Assembly: GCA_038087875.1 (NCBI GenBank)
Contig: CM075995.1
Span: 6,202,001 to 6,266,000, forward strand
Direction of reading: 5' to 3'
Length of the DNA stretch: 64,000 nt
Source of the DNA: Malacoraja senta
Lineage: Eukaryota
Within the stretch, counting starts at the first letter, position 1. Each line of letters starts with the position of its first letter. Below, piece by piece: positions 12,901 to 62,300 of the stretch. The position numbers and the translations under genes were made by a program. The notes beneath the pieces were generated by a model. It was not told the DNA's origin and searched no databases. It worked only from the letters and a program-made list of their open reading frames with translations.

Positions 12901-13955
12901 TTTTATCCCTTCTCGAACTTTCCTTCCCATTAATTCGAGAATCTTTTGTAATTTTTCCTGTAGTTACTTCCCCTTCAACTCCATCTTTATACTCCCAATT
13001 TGTCAATCCCTCCCCCCCACTATTTAGTTTAAACCCACACGTGTAGCCCTAGCAAACCTGCCTGCCAGAATGTCTGTCCCCCTCCAGTTAAGGTGTAACC
13101 TGTCCCTTTTGTACAGGTCACCCCTACCCCAGAAGAGATCCCATGGTCTATAAATCTAAATTCTTGCTCCCTGCTCCAGCACCTCAGCCACACAACCAGA
13201 TTCCCTATCTCCCTGTTCCTGTCCTCACTAGCACGAGGTACTGGAAGCAATCCAGAGTAACCACCCTAGAAGTCCTGCCTTATAGTCTTCTTCCCAACTC
13301 TCTGAACTCATGTTGGAGAACCTCCTTCCTCTTCTTCCCGATGTCGTTTGAGCCTACGTGCACAACTACTGCCGGCTGTTCACCTTTTCTCTCTCTCTTT
13401 CTCTCGAGGATTTTCTGAATTCGGCTTGTGACATCCTGAACCCTGGCACCAGGGAGGCAACAGACCATCCTCGCGTCTTGTCTGCCGCCACAGAATCTCC
13501 TGTCTGCTCCTCGGATAATGGAGTCACCCACCACTATGGCTCTGCCTGATGTCGGTCTTGCCTGTCGAGTCCCATCTCGAGGTTTGGAGCCACTGACGTG
13601 TCCGCCGCTCGGACTGGAAACATCGTCTCCCCCGACAGTTCCCAAGAGGGCGTACCTGTTTTCAATAGGCACAGCCACCTAGGTCTCCTGCACTCCACGA
13701 TTTCCACCCTTTCTCTCAGTCATACACCTTCCTTCTTCCCGTATCCTCGGCGTGAGAACCTCACTGTAGGTTCTGTCCAGGAAACTCTCGTTTTCCCGGA
13801 TGGCCCTGAGGTCATCCAGATGCTTCTCCAGTGCCCCAACAGGAGCTGAAGCTGGACGCACTTGCCACAGTTGTAGCAGCCAGAGGCTCCATCCGTGTCC
13901 CTGGGCTCCCACATTCTGCAAGCCTCACACTGTCTCATCTGTCCTATCCTGGGTT
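9996..13955 (-). mobile_element. Near full-length CR1 LINE (ORF1 Cys-rich + SGNH esterase-like; ORF2 APE endonuclease + RT), with frameshifts
   Basis: ORF1: CEAC..CGKC, IVVGDSIIRG, VVVHVGSND. ORF2: YMNARS, LDLVL, SSDH, YLDFQKAFD, PQGSVLGP, FADD (605-aa ORF 10580-12397). (caataga)n tail. Confidence 0.95.
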
Positions 13956-16502: not shown

Positions 16503-17562
16503 AGGTTGACAGGTTGAGTCAGTGGGCAGATTCTTGGCAGATGCAGTATAATATAGATAAATGTGAGGTTATCCACTTTGGCGTCAAAAACAAGGGGGCA
16601 GATTATTATCTCAATGGGGTTAGGTTAGGTAAGGGGGAGGTACAGCGAGACCTGGGTGTCCTTGTACACCGGTCACTGAAAGTTGGCGAGCAGGTACAGC
16701 AGGCAGTGAAGAAAGCTAATGGAATGTTGGCCTTCATAACAAGAGGATTTCAGTATAGGAGTAAAGAGGTTCTTCTGCAGTTGTATAGGGCTCTGGTGAG
16801 ACCACATCTGGAGTATTGTGTTAAAGAAGGAACTGCAGATGCTGGAAAATCGAAGGTACACAAAAATGCTGGAGAAACTCAGCGGGTGCAGCAGCATCTA
16901 TGGAGCGAAGGAAATAGGTAACGTTTCGGGCCGAAACGTTACCTATTTCCTTCGCTCCATAGATGCTGCTGCACCCGCTGAGTTTCTCCAGCATTTTTGT
17001 GTACCTCTGGAGTATTGTGTACAGTTTTGGTCTCCTAATTTGAGGAAGGACATCCTTGTGATTGAGGCAGTGCAGCGTAGGTTCACAAGATTGATCCCTG
17101 GGATGGCGGGACTGTCATATGAGGAAAGATTGAAAAGACTAGGCTTGTATTCACTGGAGTTTAGAAGGATGAGAGGGATTCTTATAGAAACATATAAAAT
17201 TATAAAAGGACTGGACAAGCTAGATGGAGGAAAAATGTTCCCAATGTTGGGCGAGTCCAGAACCAGGGGCCACAGTCTTAGAATAAAGGGGAGGTCATTT
17301 AAGACTGAGGTGAGAAAAAACTTTTCACCCAGAGAGTTGTGAATTTATGAAATTCCCTGCCACAGAGAGCAGTGGAGGCCAAATCACTGGATGGATTTAA
17401 GAGAGAGTTAGATAGAGCTCTATGGGCTAGTGGAGTGAAGGGATATGGGGAGAAGGCAGGCACGAATTATTGATAGGGGACGATCAGCCATGATCACAAT
17501 GAATGCCGGTGCTGGCTCGAAGGGCCGAATGGCCTCCTCTTGCATCTATTTTCTATGTTTCT
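16503..17562 (+). mobile_element. CR1 3' fragment interrupted by a palindromic pLTR insertion
   Basis: KCEVIHFG, LVRPHLEY|CVQFWSP motifs; tctatgtt tail. Confidence 0.9.
16822..17005. mobile_element. Palindromic Penelope pLTR-derived insertion
   Basis: Perfect 76-bp inverted arms (16854-16929 / 16931-17006). 15-bp TSD tctggagtattgtgt (16807-16821, 17006-17020). Confidence 0.85.
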
Positions 17563-23224: not shown

Positions 23225-24310
23225 ACAATGTGGTCATAAATGTAGATGGATTGGTTGGTAAGTTTGCAGGTTACACCAAAATTGGAGTTGTGAACATTGA
23301 GGAAGGCTGTCAAAGGATATAGCAGGATATAGATCAGCTACGCAAATAGGCGGAAAAGGCAGAGGGAGTTAAATCCAAGCAAGTCTGAGGTGTTGCACTT
23401 TGAGGTGTCGAACATAAAGGGGGTGTATACTAGGGTTGCCAACTGTCCCGTATTAGCCGGGACATCGCATATTTTGGGCTAAATTGGTTTGTCCCGCCCG
23501 TGTCCCGTATTTGACTGCTACTACTCGGGTCGAGGGGACTATCGGGTCGGAGCGCCGCGTCCGGCACCGCCTCACCCGTCCCGACGTAGTGCAGCAGCAG
23601 CCCCTCGTCCTTGGCCCCGTCGGTTGGCAGCCCAGCCAGCTGTCCGAGCTTCAGACCTTCGTTTACTGCCGACACCACCACCCGTCCTACTCATGGCCGA
23701 TCATCGGTTCATGAGTTGGATGGGGTGCCGGACTTTGCGCGCAACATCGCGCGGGCCAAAACCCCTCAGCTGGGCTTTGTGTGCAGTCCAGCACCCGGGC
23801 CAACTCATCATTCACCCAGTCACGGCCGAGTCGGTCAACAAATTGCCGTCGGGAATTTACCCCGTATTTTGACCCTTTGTCCCTTATTTGGGAGTGAGAA
23901 AGTTGGCAACCCTAGTGTATACAGTCAATGGCAAGACCCTTAATGGCATTGATGTACAGAGGGATCACGAGGTCCAAGTCCACTGCTCCCTGAAAGTGGC
24001 AAGACAAGCAGAGAGAGTGGTAAAGAAGGCATTTCCTATACTTGATTCATCAGTCAGTGCATTGAGTATAAGAGTCATGATGTCATGTTGCGGCTTTCTA
24101 AGACTTTAATAAGGCCAAAGATGGAGTAGCGGGGCAGTTCTGGTTACCCCATTACAAGAAGTATGTGGAGGCTTTGGAGAGGGTGCAGAGGAGGTTTACC
24201 CGAATGCTGCCCAGATTAGAGGATACTACCTAGAAGGAGAATTTGGATAAACTTAGATTGTTTTCTTTGGAATGTTTGGAAATATATAAAATTATGAGAG
24301 GCGTTGATAC
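23225..24310 (+). mobile_element. Degenerate CR1 fragment interrupted by a hAT element
   Basis: YTVNGKTL..QRD..VQVHCSLKVA motif resumes directly after the hAT TSD. Confidence 0.7.
23431..23914. mobile_element. Non-autonomous hAT-type TIR element (484 bp) with GC-rich, coding-like cargo
   Basis: TIRs TAGGGTTGCCAAC / GTTGGCAACCCTA. 8-bp TSD GTGTATAC (23423-23430, 23915-23922). Confidence 0.9.
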
Positions 24311-29978: not shown

Positions 29979-30125
29979 CCTAGTAAGATCCATGCCAAGT
30001 TTCAGTTGAGAAAGGAGGTGTAATATGACACTCCGTTGATCATCCAGGACTCCCAAATCATCTTCAACATTCTCTTCACTATCTGTTATCTCGTCTTCAA
30101 GATTCATTGGTTCAGGACATTGATG
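29979..30125 (-). CDS. OSBPL10: Internal coding exon (147 nt, phase 0/0) of an oxysterol-binding protein-related gene, most likely OSBPL10 (OSBPL11 not excluded)
   Basis: Minus strand reads ttttctttttatcag|CAT CAA...ACT AGG|gtaggt. Translation: HQCPEPMNLEDEITDSEENVEDDLGVLDDQRSVILHLLSQLKLGMDLTR. QRSxILHLxSQLKLGMDLT is the start of the ORD lipid-binding domain in OSBPL10/11. 'LGV..DQRS' and very long flanking introns favour OSBPL10 over OSBPL11 ('LGAVEEQRS'), recalled from memory. Confidence 0.88.
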
Positions 30126-44939: not shown

Positions 44940-45147
44940 TGTTTAAGAAGGAACTGCAGATGCTGGAAAATCAAAGGTAGACAAAAATGCTAGAGAAACT
45001 CAGCGGGTGAGGCAGCATCTATGGAGCGAAGGAAATAGGCGACGTTTCGGGTTGAGTCTGAAGAAGGGTCGTGACCCGAAACGTCGCCTATTTCCTTCGC
45101 TCCATAGATGCTGCCTCACCCGATGAGTTTCTCCAGCATTTTTGTCT
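44940..45147. mobile_element. Inverted (fold-back) Penelope pLTR insertion containing a hammerhead-like core
   Basis: 14-bp TSD accaaagatggata (44926-44939, 45148-45161). CTGAAGAAGGGTCGTGACCCGAAACGTC at 45058-45085. Confidence 0.82.
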
Positions 45148-45402
45148 ACCAAAGATGGATACCTCAGTCTCAATGATAGTTACTTAATGGTAGGTCTTTT
45201 ATAATGCATCTGGTCCATCATAGGCTCAGCCATCTCCACCGTTGAAACAATCAACATTATTCACACAGCACCGAAACAGGCCCTTTGGCATGTCGACAAG
45301 ATGCTCCATCTAAACAAGTCCCATTTGCCCGCGTTTAGCCCATATCCCTCTAAACCTTTCCTATCCATGCACCTGTCTAAGTGTCTTTTAAATGCTGTTA
45401 TG

Positions 45403-48545: not shown

Positions 48546-50239
48546 TTAGTTTATAGCTTTAGAACATACGGTGCGGAAACTGGCCGTTCGGCCCAAAGTC
48601 CGTACCGACCACCACACTAACACTATCCTACACACGCTAGGGACAATTTACAATTATACCAAGCCAATTATACCCGTCTTTGGAGTGTGGGAGGAAGCCG
48701 GAGATGTAAATGTATAGGATGCTGGTTTAAACCAAAGATAGACATAAAACGCTGGAGTAAGTCAGCGGGTCAGTCAGCATCTCTGGAGAAAAGCACTAGG
48801 TGACGTTTCGGGTCAAGACCCTTGTTCAGACCTATTAAAGAAGGGTCTCGAACCAAAACACCAACTATTCCAGCTACTCCAACTTTTATTGTTTATTTAT
48901 TGTTTCTTTTGTTATTATTTATATTTTGTGTTTAAGCTTTCTATTGAAATACTTAATAATGGATAGAACTTAAAATCATGAAATAAAAATTTAGTTTGCT
49001 CACCTATTTTAGCGATGTCTCATTCTGTAGTCCTTCCCATTTTTTTTTCACTGGTCGCAATTGTTTTTAAAATTCAAACGCGATTATAATGACCCTGGTG
49101 TGGTGGGTTAGGTGCCGACATTTTGTAAGGGAGCTTAGAAATCAGGAAGTGTCCCATAGGTCTTATAAATAATTTATTTTCTCTCTTTTTCCCCCAAATC
49201 TTGAACATATTAAATTTTAGTAAAATTTTGGTCGATTTTGATCACAAATTAGCTCAAAAGGATCATAGGTAGGTCCATTTTTAATGCTGTGGTATTTCAT
49301 TATGATTTAATAACTTTCAAATTTGTCTACCCATGACACAGGTTGGTACCCTTATTTACGGAAACACCCATATATGAGCGACTTTAGTGGTGTTTTAGAG
49401 ATGTTGAATTCTCATTAAAGTTTAAAAATAATAATTTTAGAAGTTTTTTTTATCACCGCTGAATTCTTTTGAATATCAGCAACATCCATTATAACAGGGC
49501 TGCCAACTTTGGGTGAGAGTTGGGAGTGAGAAATTGCGAGAGACCAAGCCCGAGGGAGCATAGCGACTGGGGTGGGGGGGGTTGAAGGTGTCCCCCCTCC
49601 CATTGGTACGGATCTTTCGCATTTTTCAGCTTGAAATTGTGCAATATGGTGCATACTTTAGCGAGCCTTTTAACTTACACTTGAATGCAATATATATGCT
49701 TTAAATTGGATTGGAGCATTTTTGAAAGGGGGGGGGGGCTGAGCGATCACTGATCACTGGCCTTGGGGGTACCCGGTGAGGGAGTGGAGCAACCGAGTGG
49801 GGAGAGGGTGTGGAGGAAGGGTGTGTCCCCTCCCAGGGTAGGAACGTTTTGAAATTTGATGTACTAAAATCATGTTTTAGTGCATTGTAGAAGTATGATT
49901 TCAATGTTTTTTGTATGAAGTATTTTTAAGAGGTAACTTTTTAAGAGGTAACTTTATCCACACAAAGGGTGATGAGTGTATGGAACAAGCTGCCAGAGGA
50001 GGTAGTTGAGGCAGGGACCATCCCAACATTAAAAAAAAAGTTAGACTGATACATGGATAGGACAGATTTGGAGGTATGGACCAAAAGCAGCTAGCGTAGC
50101 TGGGACATGTTGGCGGGTGTGGGAAAGTGGCGCAGAAGGGCCTGTTTTCACATTGTATCACTCTATGACTACATTATACCTCCACCATGCATGAATGCTT
50201 CAAAATCAAGTGATCGAGTTTTATTGCCATATACTCAAG

Positions 50240-50577
50240 CATAGAAACATAGAAAATAGGTGCAGGAATAGGCCATCGGCCCTTCAAGCCAGCACTGCCA
50301 TTCAATATGATCATGGCTATTCATCTAAAATCAGTACCTCTTTCCTGTTTTTTCCCCATATCCCTTGATGTTGTTAGCCCCAAGAACTAAATGTAACTCT
50401 CTCTTGAAAACATCCAGTGAATTGGCCTCCACTGCCTTCTGTGGCAGAGAATTCCACAGATTCACAACTCTCTGTGTGAAGAAAGTATAATCTCAGTCCT
50501 AACTGGCCCCCCCCTTTATTCTTAAACTGTGACCCCTGGTTCTGAACTCCCCAACATCGGGAACATTTTTCCTGCAG
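50240..50577 (-). mobile_element. CR1 3' tail fragment
   Basis: (catagaaa)n tail and CR1 3' UTR. Confidence 0.85.
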
Positions 50578-50681
50578 TTGCAGTAAGTGAAAATCTAGCA
50601 GGCAAGCAGGATGCTTTCTCCAACCACCCCCATTTGAAGTCCACTATCTTCCACCGTTTCTACCCAGTGCTTGGTACTTAC

Positions 50682-50819
50682 TTCCAGCAGCCACTAGTTG
50701 TCCTCCTGGATGCACCGAGCCACAGCCTGATCTATGCCGGTCACCTGGGCGAATTTGGCACAGAGACTCTCACGGCAGTGGCGCAACGCTTCCGACGCCT
50801 TCCACTGAGGCTGCTCCAT
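50682..50819 (-). pseudogene. TDP2: TDP2-like (tyrosyl-DNA phosphodiesterase 2) first coding exon fragment, UBA-like N-terminus, with in-frame stop
   Basis: gccATGG Kozak at 50819. Translation MEQPQWKASEALRHCRESLCAKFAQVTGIDQAVARCIQEDN*WLLE is followed by a GTAAGT donor (50681-50676). It resembles human TDP2 RRLLCVEFASVASCDAAVAQCFLAENDWEME. No further TDP2 exons seen. Confidence 0.75.
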
Positions 50820-51058
50820 GGCCGGAGCTGCAGTGAGCGACTCGCCAGCCCGGCAAACACTCGCCAGCCCCGCTCCCCGTCCGTATCTGTCTCCGCCGCT
50901 GCTTCTGCTTCCAACACCCATGGCCCATGCAGTTGATATGAGTTTTGAAATTTTCGTTGATCACAGAATTTCTCATAACAGAGCGACAGAAATTTGTGAT
51001 CAGCGTGAGAATTTGACGAAATGCGTGATTCTCAGGCTCAATGCATTCTCAGGCCCTG

Positions 51059-51372
51059 CCTCTCTATCCCCCTCTCTCCCCCCCCTCTCTCTCTCCCTCT
51101 CTCTCCCCTCTCTCCACCTCTCTTTCTCTCCCCTCTCCCTCTCCCTCCCACCTCACTCTCATCCCTCTCTCTCCCCCTCTCTTCCGCTCTCTCTCTCCCC
51201 CTCTATCTCTCCCCTCCCCCCTCTCTCTCCTTCTCTGTCTATCCTCTCACCCCCTCTCTCTCCCGTTTCCCCCTCACTCACTCCCCTTCCCTCTCTCTTC
51301 TCTCTCCCCCCTCTCTCTCTCTCTCCTCTGTTCCCCTCTCTCTCCCCTCTCTCTCCCCCCTCTCTATCCCCC
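51059..51372. repeat. CT-rich polypyrimidine low-complexity tract
   Basis: (ct)n and ccctct repeats running into the gap. Confidence 0.9.
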
Positions 51373-51572
51373 NNNNNNNNNNNNNNNNNNNNNNNNNNNN
51401 NNNNNNNNNNNNNNNNNNNNNNNNNNNNNNNNNNNNNNNNNNNNNNNNNNNNNNNNNNNNNNNNNNNNNNNNNNNNNNNNNNNNNNNNNNNNNNNNNNNN
51501 NNNNNNNNNNNNNNNNNNNNNNNNNNNNNNNNNNNNNNNNNNNNNNNNNNNNNNNNNNNNNNNNNNNNNNNN
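51373..51572. other. Assembly gap (200 N)
   Basis: Run of N. Confidence 0.99.
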
Positions 51573-53043: not shown

Positions 53044-56000
53044 TTTATTTTTTATTTTTTATTTTTTATTTTTATTTATTTTTTATTTTTATTAGAAGTA
53101 AGTACAATTGTATACAATCATATTTTCATAATACATTTTATGTACAGCTTCTTATTTTTTTAATTTTGTAATAAAGAAGAAAAAGAAAAAGAAGTTAGAT
53201 AATGAAGAATAGAAAAATGTGAGATATATAGTGTGTGAAAAAGAAAAATAGAGAGTGAAAAAAGAAAGTTAAGAAATAGAAAATAGAAGAAAAAGAGTAA
53301 AAGAAGAAAAGAGAAGAAAAGAAAAGAGAAGTAAGGAGATCGTATTTATAATCTTGACCATTCCTCACCCAGTCACGGATTAGCTTTTACACTTGTGTTG
53401 CACCATATGTTTCCAAAAAGACGACAAATGGAGACCAACTCGTTATGAATTGGTCAAATTTATCTATTAGGAGGAATCGCCTTTCCTCAAAATGTGCGGT
53501 ATCCAACATACTTGCAATCCACATTTTGAGCGTTGGTATTGGTGTATTTTTCCAAAATTTCAATATTAATTTTTTTGCTATTATTAAACCATAATTAAAA
53601 AATAACTTTTGAGATGGGTTCAATTTGTTCCCATCTTCCATTACCCCAAATATAATCAATTCATTATTGGGTTCCATTTTTGTCTTAAATAATTTTGTGA
53701 ATATTTTGAAAATATCACTCCAAAATTCATGAAGTTTTATACAAGAAACAAAAGAGTGTGTTATAGTTGCGTCTTGGGTTAAACATTTATCACAAATGGG
53801 GGATATATTTGGATAAAATTTATTTAATCTTGTTTTTGAGTAATATAATCTATGTAAAATTTTAAATTGAATTAGATTATGTCTTGCGTTAATCGAACAT
53901 TTGTGAATGTATGTCAAATACTTTTCCCATGTAGCCTTCGTAATTTTTATCAATAATTCCCATTCCCACTCTTCTCTAATTACCTCGGTCGCAGGTAAAT
54001 CTATATTTAAGATACTATTATATAAATATGATATTAATTTTTGTGTATCAGCTTTAATATTCATTACTTCTTCTAGTAAATCAGGAGTTATTTTTTAATC
54101 TCCCTGTATGTATGTCTTCAAGAAATTGCAAATCTGAAAATATTTAAAATAATGAGTGTTTTTCAATTTAAATTTTAATTGTAATTGTTGAAATGATAGT
54201 AAATCTCCCATTTCATACATATCCCCGATCCTTTTAATTCCTAAACTTTCCCATTGATTATATATTTTATCCATCATAGATGGTTTAAATAAAGGATTAT
54301 TCGCTATCGGTGTTAACAATGATAGGTTTCTTAGTTTTAAGGATAATTTTATTTGTTTCCATATTCTTATTGTATCTTGTATAATTGGGTTTTTCTTATA
54401 TATTGTATTGTTCATTTTTTTCGGGGAGAAGAGGATTGTTCCTATATTACAAGGATAACAATCCTCTTTCTCCATTTCTATCCATTCTGTCTGTTGGGTT
54501 GAACTATCCAACCAATAAATTATATTCTTAATATGTATTGCCCAATAGTAATACAAAAAATTTGGGAGTGAAAGTCCCCCGACATCTTTTGGTTTACATA
54601 AGTGTTCTTTTTTAATTCTATGTGATTTATAATCCCAAACAAAATTAGTAATGTTAGCATTCAGTTTAGAAAAAAAATATTTTGGTACATATACTGGTAT
54701 AGATTGAAATAGGTATAATAACTGTGGTAGAAAGCTCATTTTAATAGCATTTATTCTGCCTATTAATGATAAAGGAAGTGTTTTCCAAAATTTAATCATT
54801 ATATTAAGTTTATTTATTAAGGGTATAAAATTGGCGTTGAATAAAGCTTTATGTTTTCTAGTAATCTGTATACCCAGATATTTAAATTTTTCTGTTGCTA
54901 TTTTAAAGGGGAATTTCAATAAGTGTTTAGATTCTTGAGGTTTTAACGTCATAATTTCACTTTTGTTCCAATTTATTCTATATCCAGAAAAGGACCCAAA
55001 TTATTAAATTGAATAAATTTGGTATGCTCGTTTGTGAATTTGTTATATATAACAGAATATCGTCTGCATACAATGAAATTTTATTATTTGAGTCCCTAGT
55101 ATTATAACCCTGAATATTCGGATGGCTTCTTATACTTTCAGCCAGAGGTTCTATCATAAGGGCAAATAGCAGGGGTGATAAAGCACATCCCTGCCTATTA
55201 CCCCTTGATAATTGAAATTTTTGAGATAACATGCTGTTAGTTAATATTCTTGCCATCGGTTTATCATATAATAATTTCACCCATGCAATAAAGTTCTCCC
55301 CCATATTAAATTTTTATAATACTTTGTATAAATACTGCCATTCTACCTGATCAAATGCTTTCTCTGCGTCCAAAGAAATAATTGATAAGTCTTCTTCCTC
55401 CACTTTATGTGAGTACATTATATTAAACAGGCGTCTCAAATTATTAAATGAATATCTTTTGGGTATAAACCCCGTTTGATCAGGGATTATCAATTTACTA
55501 ATATATTTGCTTAGTCTTCTGGCTAAAGTCTTTGCTAGGATTTTCTGATCTGTATTTAAAAGTGGTATAGCTCTATATAAGCCCAGTTCCTCTAGATCTT
55601 TATCTTTCTTTGGAATAAGCGTAATAGTTGATTCTGCTAATGTTTCAGGTAATTTATTTTCTTTAAAAACGTAAGTATATAAATTAAATAGATAGGGGGT
55701 CTTTATCTCATGAAATTTTTTATAAAATTCATTACTAAAACCATCTGGTCCCGGTGTCTTACCATTTTTCAACGATTTTATTGTTTCACCTATTTCTTCG
55801 ATTGTAATTTGCGCTCCTAGTTCTTCTTGTTTCAAAAGGTCAAGTTTTGGTAGATTACAGTTATCTAAAATTTTTTAAATTTTACTATCTTCTGTTTTGG
55901 TTTTTGATGTGTATAAATTTTGATAAAATTGAACAAATCTTTTATTAATATCTTTAGGTAGTGTTAGTAATTCACCATTATCGGATTTAATTTTATTTAT

Positions 56001-56591
56001 AGTATTTTCCTTTTCCTGTTTTTTCAGTTGACGAGCCAACAGCTTATGTGGTTTGTCACCAAACTCAAAATGTTCCTGTTTTGTAATTTGGAATAATCTT
56101 ATTACTCTTGCAGAGAGAATTCGGTTAAGTTTAAATTTCAGTAGTATTATCTTATTATGTTTATCTATAGTGGGATCTTTAGCATTGTCTAACTCTAACT
56201 GTCTTATTTCTTGTTCTAACCACATTTGTTCTGTTTTATTCTTCTTATTTTGAAAAATTTCATATGAAATTATAATTCCTCTAATAAATGCTTTAAGTTT
56301 CCCATAGTAAAGAAGGTGAGGTACCTGGTGTATCATTTATCTCAAAAAATAATTTCATTTGTTGTTTCAAGTATTGATAACCCTGTAAATCATTTAATAT
56401 ATGTGTATTAAACCTCCAAAAATTTTTACTGAAAAAGTCAACGGAGAGTGATCAGAAATACTACTAATATGGTATGTTGGGTTAATTGTATATGGCATTA
56501 ATTTCCTATCCACTAAAAAATAATCAATTCTTGAATATGTTTTATATACCGAAGAGTAAAACAAATATTCCCTTCCTGCTGGATTAGCAGA
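53044..56591 (-). mobile_element. 5'-truncated L1-clade LINE (ORF2 with frameshifts) with poly(A)-like tail
   Basis: SRIDYF/SDHSP (endonuclease end), LDAEKAFD, RQGCALSPLLF, YADD, CDKC..H..C knuckle. T-rich tail at ~53041-53092. Flanked by a 39-42-bp direct repeat. Confidence 0.93.
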
Positions 56592-59381: not shown

Positions 59382-62300
59382 CTGTCCCACGGAAATGATT
59401 TCCACATACATCGACTCCATCCTATCCAGGGCTCGAAATTAGCGGTTGCCCGGGTGCCACTGACCACTCAAAGCGCCGCCGGGCAACCTAAACACCGAGT
59501 CATTTTGCCCGGCTTGGCAACCAGATGCTGGTTTGTACCGAAGTTAGACACAAAAAACTGGAGTAACTCCGCGGGTCAGGCAGCATCTCTGGAGAAAAGG
59601 AACTCAGCGTTTCGTGTCGGCTTTGCGGGGCAAAGATACTAGGTGCGGGGTGAAGAAGGGTCGGAGCGAATGATGGGCCCTGAACAGCGGCAGCAGCGGC
59701 CGCGACAGCGGCTCCATCTCCTCCTCCTCCCGCCTCCCGTCTCCCGCCCGCCCTGATAAGGGCCTCTGCTTGTAAATCCGCTAACCGCGCTATCAAAACA
59801 AACCCTCCCGCACGCCGAGGCAGGGGGAAGGGAGGGAGGGGCCCTCGGCGTGCAGGAGGGTTTGTTTTGCGCCGTTCTCGGATTTACAAGCAGAGGCCCT
59901 TATCAGGGCGGGCGGGGTGCGGGAGGAGGAGGAGATGGAGCCGCTATCGCGGCCGCTGCTGCCGCTGTTCTGGGCCCGTCATTCACTCCGACTCGTCTGA
60001 AGCAGCTGCACCAAAGATCTTATAGCTATAGGATCTCTGAGCTGCACCGCTCGGCCCCGCACGTTGCTGTTGGCTGGCGGAGGAGGGAGGCGGTGGCGAG
60101 GAGTTCCCAACGGCCAAGGCAGCGGGGCGATGTTGTCCGAGGAGCGCTGACCTTCCTTCCTGCCCACCTCGCCCCCCCTCTCTCTCTCTCTTGTACGCCC
60201 CCTCCACCCCCTTATCCTGGGACCCCTCCACTCCATCCCGCACTGATCCCCATTCCCGCCTCTATTCAGTCCTCACTGACATCCCGTGCTCCCCTCCACA
60301 TCTACCCCCCCCCCATCTATTCATCCTGTGCTGATCACCCTATCCACCTCACATTGATTCTCCTGCCACCCCCCCCCCCATCCATCCTACACTGGTTCCT
60401 CAATTCACCCTGTACTTACCCCTTTCCCATCCATCCTGCACTTCTCCTCCATCCATCCTGCACAGACCCTCCGATCCACACTGTACTGACCCTCCCATTC
60501 ATCCTGCGCTGATCTCCCCCCCCCCCATCCATCCTGTACTGATCCTCCCATTCAAGAAGAATGGGGGGTACAGTCTGAAGAAGGGTCTCGACCGGAAACG
60601 TTGCCTATTTCCTTCGCTCCATAGATGCTGCCTCACCCGCTGAGTTTCTCCAGCACTTTTGTCTACCCCCATCCATCCCGTACTGAACCCCCCCATTCAA
60701 CACCACTGACATCCCCGGTGCTCTCCCCTCACAATGTTACCTACTCCAACCAACACGTACTAATTCACCTGCCTCAATCCATCCATTCTGCACCGACTAC
60801 CTTCTAACCCTCCCCCCCCCCACCCCCACCATCTATCCACCCTGCACTGATTCACACACACACCCTCCCTGACCCTATTGTGCTGGAAATGTCTTCAGAG
60901 CGAACATTGACTATGTTTGATAATGGAATGCAATCAAATGTGTTTTAATTCCCAATGTTATTATTTGTTTTAATCCATAAAGATGGATTAATTAAATTGT
61001 GAACACGTGAAACATTAAAACCGCAGTGTTCGATTGTCACTGCTGCCATTGACACGTTATTACAGAATTCATTTTAACGGCAAATCAATGCTCTTAATAT
61101 GGAGTATCAGTACTGTAGTTATTTAATGACAACATTCACAACTATACGTACGCATATATGTTACCATGGTCCAGGATTTATTGACACAGGTTGATCATAC
61201 GCTGAATAATCCAACCACATTTTTGTTTGGAAGTGGAAAGAACTAATAGAAATTGCATTAATTGCAATGTGTAAAAAGAGTTGAGATACTGTCTTATAAT
61301 TTGGCTGCATGTCATTGTGGGATATATCATGTCTTGATTGGTGAATATGTTTAGTTTGTGACTTTATTTGAAGCAGAAATAATATGTGAATGCTTCATTG
61401 AGTATAATTCCGACTGGTAACTACGCACTTCGTCCGAGCACATTATCGCACGCATCATGCAAGCCATCTTAAATTACCACCTAAACTGTCATTTGGCAAC
61501 CTAAAAAGCTGCCAAGGTTGCCCGGCTGGCAACAGGGAAAAAAAGTTAAGCGAGAGCCCTGCTATCCCCCCTGGTCCAATCTCTCCCGATCCATGTCCAA
61601 GATACCTCACATGCCTTTTGTCTCTTTAATGACATGCTTTCCGAGCCCCCACTCCCTAATCTGTACTATGGACTTTCAGTCACTGTACACCTCCACCGCC
61701 TTGCAGCCCTCAGTTTCTTCCTCGACCGCAGAACCATCCAATTTCCCTCCACTAACACTCTACTCCGCCTACTTGATCCACACCCTCAACAACTTCTCCT
61801 TTGACTCCTCCCACTTCCTCCGTCCAAGGCGCAGCTATGGGCACCCGCATGGGCCCCAGCTAAACCTGCCTCTTTCTAGGGTACGTTGAACAATCCGTGT
61901 TCCAGACGTACACTGGCCCTATCCCCAAACTCTATCTCCATTACATTAATGCCTGCATTGGTGCTATCTCCTGCACCCATGCAGAACTCATGGACTTCAT
62001 CAACTTCATCACCAATTTTCATCCTGCACTCAAATTTACTTCGACCATCTCCGATACCTCCCTCCCCTTTCTTGATCCCACAGTCTCCATTACAAGAAAC
62101 AGACTATTGACTGACATCTGTTACAAACCCACTGACCCACAACTATCTCGACTAAACTTCTTCCCACCCTGCTTCCTGCAAAGACTCTATCCCCTACTCC
62201 CAATTCCTCCGTTCTACCCCGCATCTGCGTCCAAGATGAGATGTTCCATACCAGAACATCCAAGATGCCCTCATTCTTTAGGAAACGGGGGTTCCCCTCT

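Follow-up and report, generated by a model that had tools for sequence, protein, structure and literature searches.

Background and comparison with known gene-capturing transposons

In plants, TIR transposons commonly capture genes. Three papers describe the systems closest to the one considered here. A survey of 100 animal genomes counted 370 Pack-TIRs, 208 of which belong to hAT (208/370), and gave only four multicopy cases (1.4%), with Pack-hAT-N8_XT of Xenopus tropicalis found at three loci (Tan et al., 2021; PMC8277862). Nearly all were single-copy, and the survey concluded that most animal Pack-TIRs arise without transposition (PMC8277862). HelibatN3 of Myotis lucifugus carries the NUBPL promoter, first exon, and a partial intron at about a thousand copies (PMC4224331), and in Pseudocercospora fijiensis a hAT element has amplified a histone H3 sequence to hundreds of copies, all of them inactivated by RIP (PMC6710886).

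The window analysed here, a stretch of 64,000 nt from Malacoraja senta, holds the 5' part of a DNA-repair gene, TDP2, in what appears to be a transposon of the skate genome. As in the animal Pack-TIRs of the survey, the element would be non-autonomous with terminal inverted repeats, its cargo is a short, unprocessed host-gene piece of exonic and 5' origin, and it lies in an intron of another gene. It differs from them in copy number, for which sequencing depth points to hundreds or thousands. HelibatN3 is closest in anatomy and scale; it is, however, a rolling-circle Helitron that includes the promoter (PMC4224331), whereas the skate element has as its right end the inverted repeat of a family with 8-bp duplications. 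The fungal P. fijiensis case is closest in carrier, being a hAT that amplifies the sequence of a housekeeping gene, but it is a complete hAT element (PMC6710886), while the skate element is short, shows no transposase, and has a depth-weighted majority frame that is open at the sites listed.

We consider it likely that a single high-copy, non-autonomous Pack-hAT (a hAT-type Pack-TIR) carries TDP2 exon 1 with its splice donor. The family, rather than the copy in the window, is of interest as a new, unusually high-copy form of the known Pack-TIR capture. No report of a TDP2-carrying skate hAT family was found among the papers searched, and it may already be catalogued in Repbase or Dfam under a generic name. 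The main text of PMC8277862 contains neither "skate", "shark", nor "TDP2", and its supplements list 0 Pack-TIRs for the elephant shark and no "TDP2"; main-text passages of two skate genome papers contain neither "TDP2" nor "hAT".

Identity of the captured fragment

On the minus strand, the letters ccggccATGG at 50819 open a run of 46 codons that ends at 50682 and contains one TAG at codon 42 (50696-50694). A GTAAGT donor follows at 50681-50676, and the roughly 100 nt from there to 50578 are not CR1. The first-pass annotation had described this arrangement (gccATGG, 46 codons with one TAG, GTAAGT, and ~100 nt of intron-like sequence), and every part of it was found in place. Its proposal that the peptide resembles the UBA-like N-terminus of TDP2 also held up in searches, and the match exceeds chance. 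The 46-codon peptide, with X at the stop, had its best PDB sequence match in the TDP2 UBA domain 6q00 (E 5e-4), among seven matches under E 10 of which the next stood at E 0.95, and annotated skate TDP2 proteins aligned by tblastn to window positions 50870-50658 with E 2.5e-17 and 1.3e-15. The Pfam UBA_4 model scored the copy at 50682-50819 at 15.4 bits, under the cut-off of 21.8, and the less decayed copy in the database protein P0001 passed this cut-off with 26.5 bits. A search with P0001 led to TDP2 of Rhinoraja longicauda and Leucoraja erinacea, to which a cluster look-up added Amblyraja radiata; among longer proteins, 3 of 1118 candidates matched P0001, two of them TDP2 itself. The predicted structure of P0001 was of low confidence (mean pLDDT 61), Foldseek placed 6q00 first without significance (E 1.9 over 32 columns), and the ESM Atlas returned generic UBA-like clusters at 0.85 or less, which are a lead only.

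Skate TDP2 proteins match the fragment to the last residue of the exon and part from it exactly at the GT, and tblastn found no match to later TDP2 exons (exon 2 onward) anywhere in the 64-kb window; we therefore read the fragment as an unprocessed TDP2 exon 1. Positions 50682-50819 (minus strand) correspond to skate TDP2 exon 1 between its second Met and the exact exon boundary. The UBA domain encoded there breaks off where the third helix begins, and the cargo has in skate TDP2 an identifiable host gene. The 50578-50681 segment (minus strand) comprises the donor and about 100 nt that are probably the start of TDP2 intron 1; the read-through past the donor was identical at 28 of 28 residues in P0001 and P0122. 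In the skate TDP2 proteins XP_078283247.1, XP_032869397.1, and XP_055510903.1, the exon-1 peptide is 71-78% identical to the fragment and ends at the same exon boundary. Unlike these proteins, the fragment lacks exon 2 onward and the phosphodiesterase domain, has the third UBA helix cut and the linker altered, and is decayed.

GTAAGT stands where the protein goes into exon 2, the donor and the likely intron are kept, and no spliced exon 2 is present, in agreement with the earlier claim of capture at the DNA level and not by retroposition. A processed pseudogene was accordingly rejected, with the donor kept and no tblastn match to exon 2 or later in the window. We also considered whether the TDP2 exon is itself derived from a transposon and rejected this for the UBA part, because that part matches the solved TDP2 UBA domain. 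Rfam gave no matches over 49300-51400.

Dispersed copies in skate genomes

Twenty-three sequencing runs were listed; 14 of them, from 7 organism codes and 9 studies, contain half or more of 45 sampled words. Depth was mapped over 49330-51085 in four of the 23 runs, namely X1 and X2, which are whole-genome runs of other organisms, X15, which is probably DNA, and X17, which is RNA only by guess; X19 and X20 (shares 0.09 and 0.07) were left out. Summed contig depth over the exon bins (50687-50922) was 103k-301k in X1 and 86k-297k in X2, and the single-copy reference was 53 (X1) and 59 (X2) in the flank bin 49389-49447, or 35-43 for single long contigs. The resulting ratio of exon to single-copy depth, 1,454-8,411 in X1 and X2, is a rough measure. 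Since summed depth does not equal copy number, as the tool itself warns, and short overlapping contigs inflate it, we read the ratio as hundreds to thousands of copies. The number of contigs that carry another letter at each of 8 listed sites in 50696-50892, a count free of depth, was 71-118 in X1 and 78-115 in X2; this agrees with a multicopy sequence, given that a single gene would yield a handful. The TDP2 piece is thus likely present in skate genomes in hundreds to thousands of copies, and the label "orphan" that the first-pass annotation had given the fragment fails, the sequence being multicopy in other runs.

Copies with the same chimeric structure were seen for the left end of the element, the exon, and the donor: X17 record 24 joins the left end to the exon, and X1 record 8, X2 records 30 and 31, X15 record 16, and X17 record 23 join the exon to the donor. 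These contigs bear on an artefact that the first-pass annotation had named as its own refutation, a misassembly beside the 200-N gap. The gap and a microsatellite do lie directly upstream of the fragment. The internal junctions nevertheless recur in independent runs, which makes a misassembly unlikely; moreover, no gap separates the fragment from the host-gene exon at 30125, and the copy bears decay changes that an intact TDP2 gene cannot have. We give this explanation next to no weight.

Four further database proteins contain the TDP2 piece, namely P0001, P0122, and P0137, all three of which read on into the intron, and P0132, the last being an A. radiata gene model on another chromosome than TDP2. 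This dispersal weighs on the idea that the piece arose by one local segmental duplication out of the TDP2 locus and came to rest passively beside transposon debris. TDP2 and OSBPL10, the host gene discussed below, lie on equally long contigs and are likely on the same chromosome in three of three annotated skates, as such a duplication would favour. It is largely refuted by the thousand-fold depth and the dozens of variants per site, and the left-end junction shared with other copies and the copy on another chromosome in A. radiata also speak against it, leaving it extremely improbable.

Where the three intact TDP2 genes have GE, each of the five copies has SEA or SEV (5/5 against 3/3). On a tree of seven rows, from which P0132 was left out as too short, the four remaining copies made up one side of a weakly supported branch (77/72). 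One capture would be the simplest, if tentative, reading of this pattern. A 50%-cluster search with P0122 returned one protein and no sign there of many annotated fusion proteins. A metagenome scan with a 20-nt donor motif gave 0 loci, and one with P0001 confirmed 0 of 596 candidate stretches. Three viral-contig matches to an 18-nt motif were set aside as chance, since they agree with the window over only 18-22 nt.

Ends and internal structure of the probable carrier

The right (3') part of the element occupies 49495-49949 (minus strand) and ends in a terminal inverted repeat at 49495-49508, which reads CAGGGCTGCCAACT on the plus strand. The boundary is sharp: depth was 57k-469k at 49507-49919, against the 53 and 59 of the flank bin. 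X2 record 25 (925 nt, depth 35.3; 6 differences in 165) follows the flank as far as 49495, where the match stops. Its other 736 letters do not match; it is likely the orthologous flank and may be an empty site. In X17 record 17, which starts at the same position, the flank is another one. The terminus agrees at 14 of 15 letters with that of an intact GC-rich non-autonomous element at 23431-23914, and the two also have a 14-letter subterminal word in common. The latter element ends in TAGGGTTGCCAAC on either side and is flanked by GTGTATAC, its 8-bp target duplication. hAT elements usually produce 8-bp target duplications (PMC12730594). From these letters, the carrier would belong to the hAT superfamily. 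We take its ends to resemble those of Blackjack-type hAT elements. A Helitron with gene capture was tried as an alternative class and rejected, the boundary at 49495 being an inverted-repeat terminus; the 3' hairpin and CTRR were judged by eye.

The left (5') end covers 50926-51058 (minus strand). It starts with CAGGG like the right terminus, is not continued as an inverted repeat and is likely damaged, and contains subterminal words of the CTCAC/TGAGA type. Its depth was 94k-249k at 50923-51040 and fell to 3k-6k at 51041-51085, and P0122 translates through it into the TDP2 exon. The terminal 100 nt at this end hold five of the motif words, and four or more occurred in 6 of 636 window bins (a post-hoc count). 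Its flank consists of a GA-rich microsatellite (51059-51372) and the 200-N assembly gap (51373-51572), together 51059-51572. With the left flank so composed, no matching 8-bp target duplication was found around the TDP2-carrying copy, and a clean inverted repeat is not present at its left end.

Two high-copy repeats lie between the exon and the right part. The one at 50240-50577 (minus strand) is a 5'-truncated LINE 3' fragment, presumably of CR1 type, whose identity with the window's other copies is 77-83% and whose depth is about 10^6-10^7; it is likely a later insertion into this copy. The one at 49950-50169 (minus strand), which we assume to be SINE-like, has self-matches in the window and a depth of about 10^6 or more.

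That the fragment sits within a transposon-like unit, as first annotated, is supported by the sharp right boundary at the inverted repeat and by the link between the left end and the exon. In an alternative reading, the TDP2 piece is multicopy on another carrier: the end at 49495 would be that of a nearby, independent MITE, and some other element or a differently ended subfamily would move the exon. None of the contigs listed spans the whole unit or joins the intron part to the right end, the longest aligned piece being 216 nt. The CR1 and SINE pieces intervene, the left end is imperfect, and the target duplication is absent at this copy. Since X1 record 2 departs from the right part at 49719, this part may be composite. 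Against a separate carrier, both ends begin with CAGGG and have the same subterminal words, and depth is of the same order (10^5) in the left end, exon, and right part. In addition, an X1 contig makes a joint from 50882 to 51052, and its insert ends with AACT by the terminus (minus side), like the right inverted repeat. We regard another carrier as unlikely and prefer the Pack-hAT, in which the left end, the exon, and the right end would move together.

In the Pack-hAT scenario, a short hAT-type element would have acquired the 5' end of TDP2 in a single DNA-level event. Capture may have gone through template switching or gap filling, both proposed as Pack-TIR capture routes in the survey (PMC8277862), or through two nearby ends that bracketed TDP2 exon 1. 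Transposase supplied in trans could have amplified the element to hundreds or thousands of copies, one of which would have entered the OSBPL10 intron after divergence from organism B. That copy would have decayed through loss of the first Met, a frameshift, a short linker, and the TAG, and a later CR1 3' fragment would have interrupted it. These steps (capture, amplification, insertion, decay, and CR1 interruption) are likely, none having been observed directly.

N-terminal extension and decay of this copy

The GC-rich sequence upstream of the ATG at 50819 had been annotated as a 5' leader. This label fails for most of its length, because 50911-50820 aligns with the N-terminal coding extension of skate TDP2, as found in P0130 and P0133 (TDP2 of Rhinoraja longicauda and Amblyraja radiata) and also in P0001, P0122, and P0137. 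The extension is present in skate TDP2 proteins of 396 and 392 residues, and the ATG at 50819 corresponds to the second TDP2 Met, the annotated start in L. erinacea. In the window the extension (50820-50911, minus strand) lacks the start Met and has a 1-nt frameshift near 50871. A further in-frame ATG at 50921 gives 75 codons before the same TAG. The linker of the copy at 50682-50819 is 6-8 codons shorter than in relatives.

The TAG truncates the frame, as had been expected, with the stop coming after 41 codons from the ATG at 50819 or 75 from that at 50921. At this codon (50696), CAG was read in 307,365 of 309,073 depth units in X1 and 197,849 of 198,362 in X2, which is over 99%. The TAG is decay private to the copy at 50682-50819. 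At six of the six exon sites listed, the majority letter gave the residue of at least 2/3 of the intact TDP2 proteins, as seen in 40 of the 348 rows of a variant table whose depth-weighting favours collapsed consensus contigs. The majority frame of the family looks open at these sites, and the copy at 50578-51058 is probably an ordinary dead, decayed passenger without function.

Position within OSBPL10

The exon at 30125-29979 (29979..30125, minus strand; phase 0, 49 codons) is an internal exon of OSBPL10, with best matches to OSBPL10 of skates and rays; the window holds no other exon of this gene. The sequence from there to the TDP2 fragment, whose donor is 20.5 kb away, is free of gaps. The fragment would therefore lie inside a long OSBPL10 intron. 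The first-pass annotation had placed the fragment in an intron of another gene, in the same orientation and upstream of the phase-0 exon at 30125, and this placement stands: the TDP2 donor and the acceptor of the exon are on the same strand and both in phase 0, so the phases are compatible.

Such an arrangement invites the proposal that the copy acts as an alternative first exon of OSBPL10, spliced from 50682 to 30125, with a short upstream ORF followed by an isoform that lacks the PH domain and retains only the lipid-transfer domain. Strand, phase, and a donor that is consensus from +1 to +6 would allow it, and the copy is still fairly rich in CpG (observed/expected 0.87 and 0.66). OSBPL10 entries that start just before the homologue of the exon at 30125 can be found (9 of 10 hand-picked short fish entries, some of them partial models), the A. 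radiata gene model P0132 appears to use the same donor, and the cargo of bat Helitrons does supply splice sites (PMC4224331). On the other side, none of the 15 joints listed, of 503, uses the donor, and nearly all of these fall in CR1 or SINE sequence, as do nearly all of the 24 loose ends listed of 3555 (contigs only, all four runs, over 49330-51085). Two contigs from runs guessed to be RNA cross the donor unspliced; both belong to other copies, and one of the runs, X15, is probably DNA. The copy has no first Met and bears the frameshift and the TAG, only about 130 nt of terminal sequence lie upstream, and the TDP2 promoter is not among the captured parts seen. The C-terminus of P0132 matches a repeat in the window, and the model looks like an ab initio chimera. 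We consider this role very unlikely for the copy in the window and retain the reading of a decayed passenger.

For the family as a whole, a bolder suggestion can be made. A skate hAT family may have scattered thousands of first-exon cassettes, each with a Kozak ATG, an open UBA frame, and a consensus donor, and some of these may have been recruited as first exons that tag unrelated proteins with a ubiquitin-binding part, or may give rise to small RNAs with an effect on the 5' end of TDP2. This is speculative, and we rate it as improbable.

Separately, four skate OSBPL10 transcript-like entries from Logan contigs (P0126-P0129) depart right after the homologue of the exon at 30125-29979 into a short alternative C-terminus, which gives PH-only forms without the lipid-transfer domain.

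Significance

A vertebrate hAT that carries a coding first exon and its donor at hundreds or thousands of copies would, if true, be the TIR counterpart of the bat Helitron captures. The family would amount to a large natural experiment of many dated insertions of one exon cassette, and cases of exonization, of selection acting on the open frame, and of influence on the parent gene could be counted across them. In practical terms, it can create false chimeric gene models such as the A. radiata "granzyme K-like" protein, and it can lead to TDP2 exon 1 being repeat-masked or mis-quantified in skates.

Other repeats and annotations

The "granzyme K-like" model (P0132, XP_032892111.1) begins with the TDP2 cassette, partly in another frame and apparently with the same donor, and its C-terminal end matches window positions 13631-13762; because this end corresponds to a window repeat, the model is likely a repeat-driven ab initio chimera. 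Elsewhere in the window, a further element, at 59427-61561, has ends of the CAGGGCTC type and lacks a clear 8-bp duplication; inside it lies a nested palindromic GC-rich repeat at 59654-59998. At about 53100-56350 the minus strand holds a degenerate LINE-like region that is AT-rich and bears a poly(A)-like tail; by resemblance, it is presumably L1-type. Two near-perfect palindromes, at 16854-17006 and 44976-45150 (153 and 177 nt), are head-to-head copies of one short repeat.
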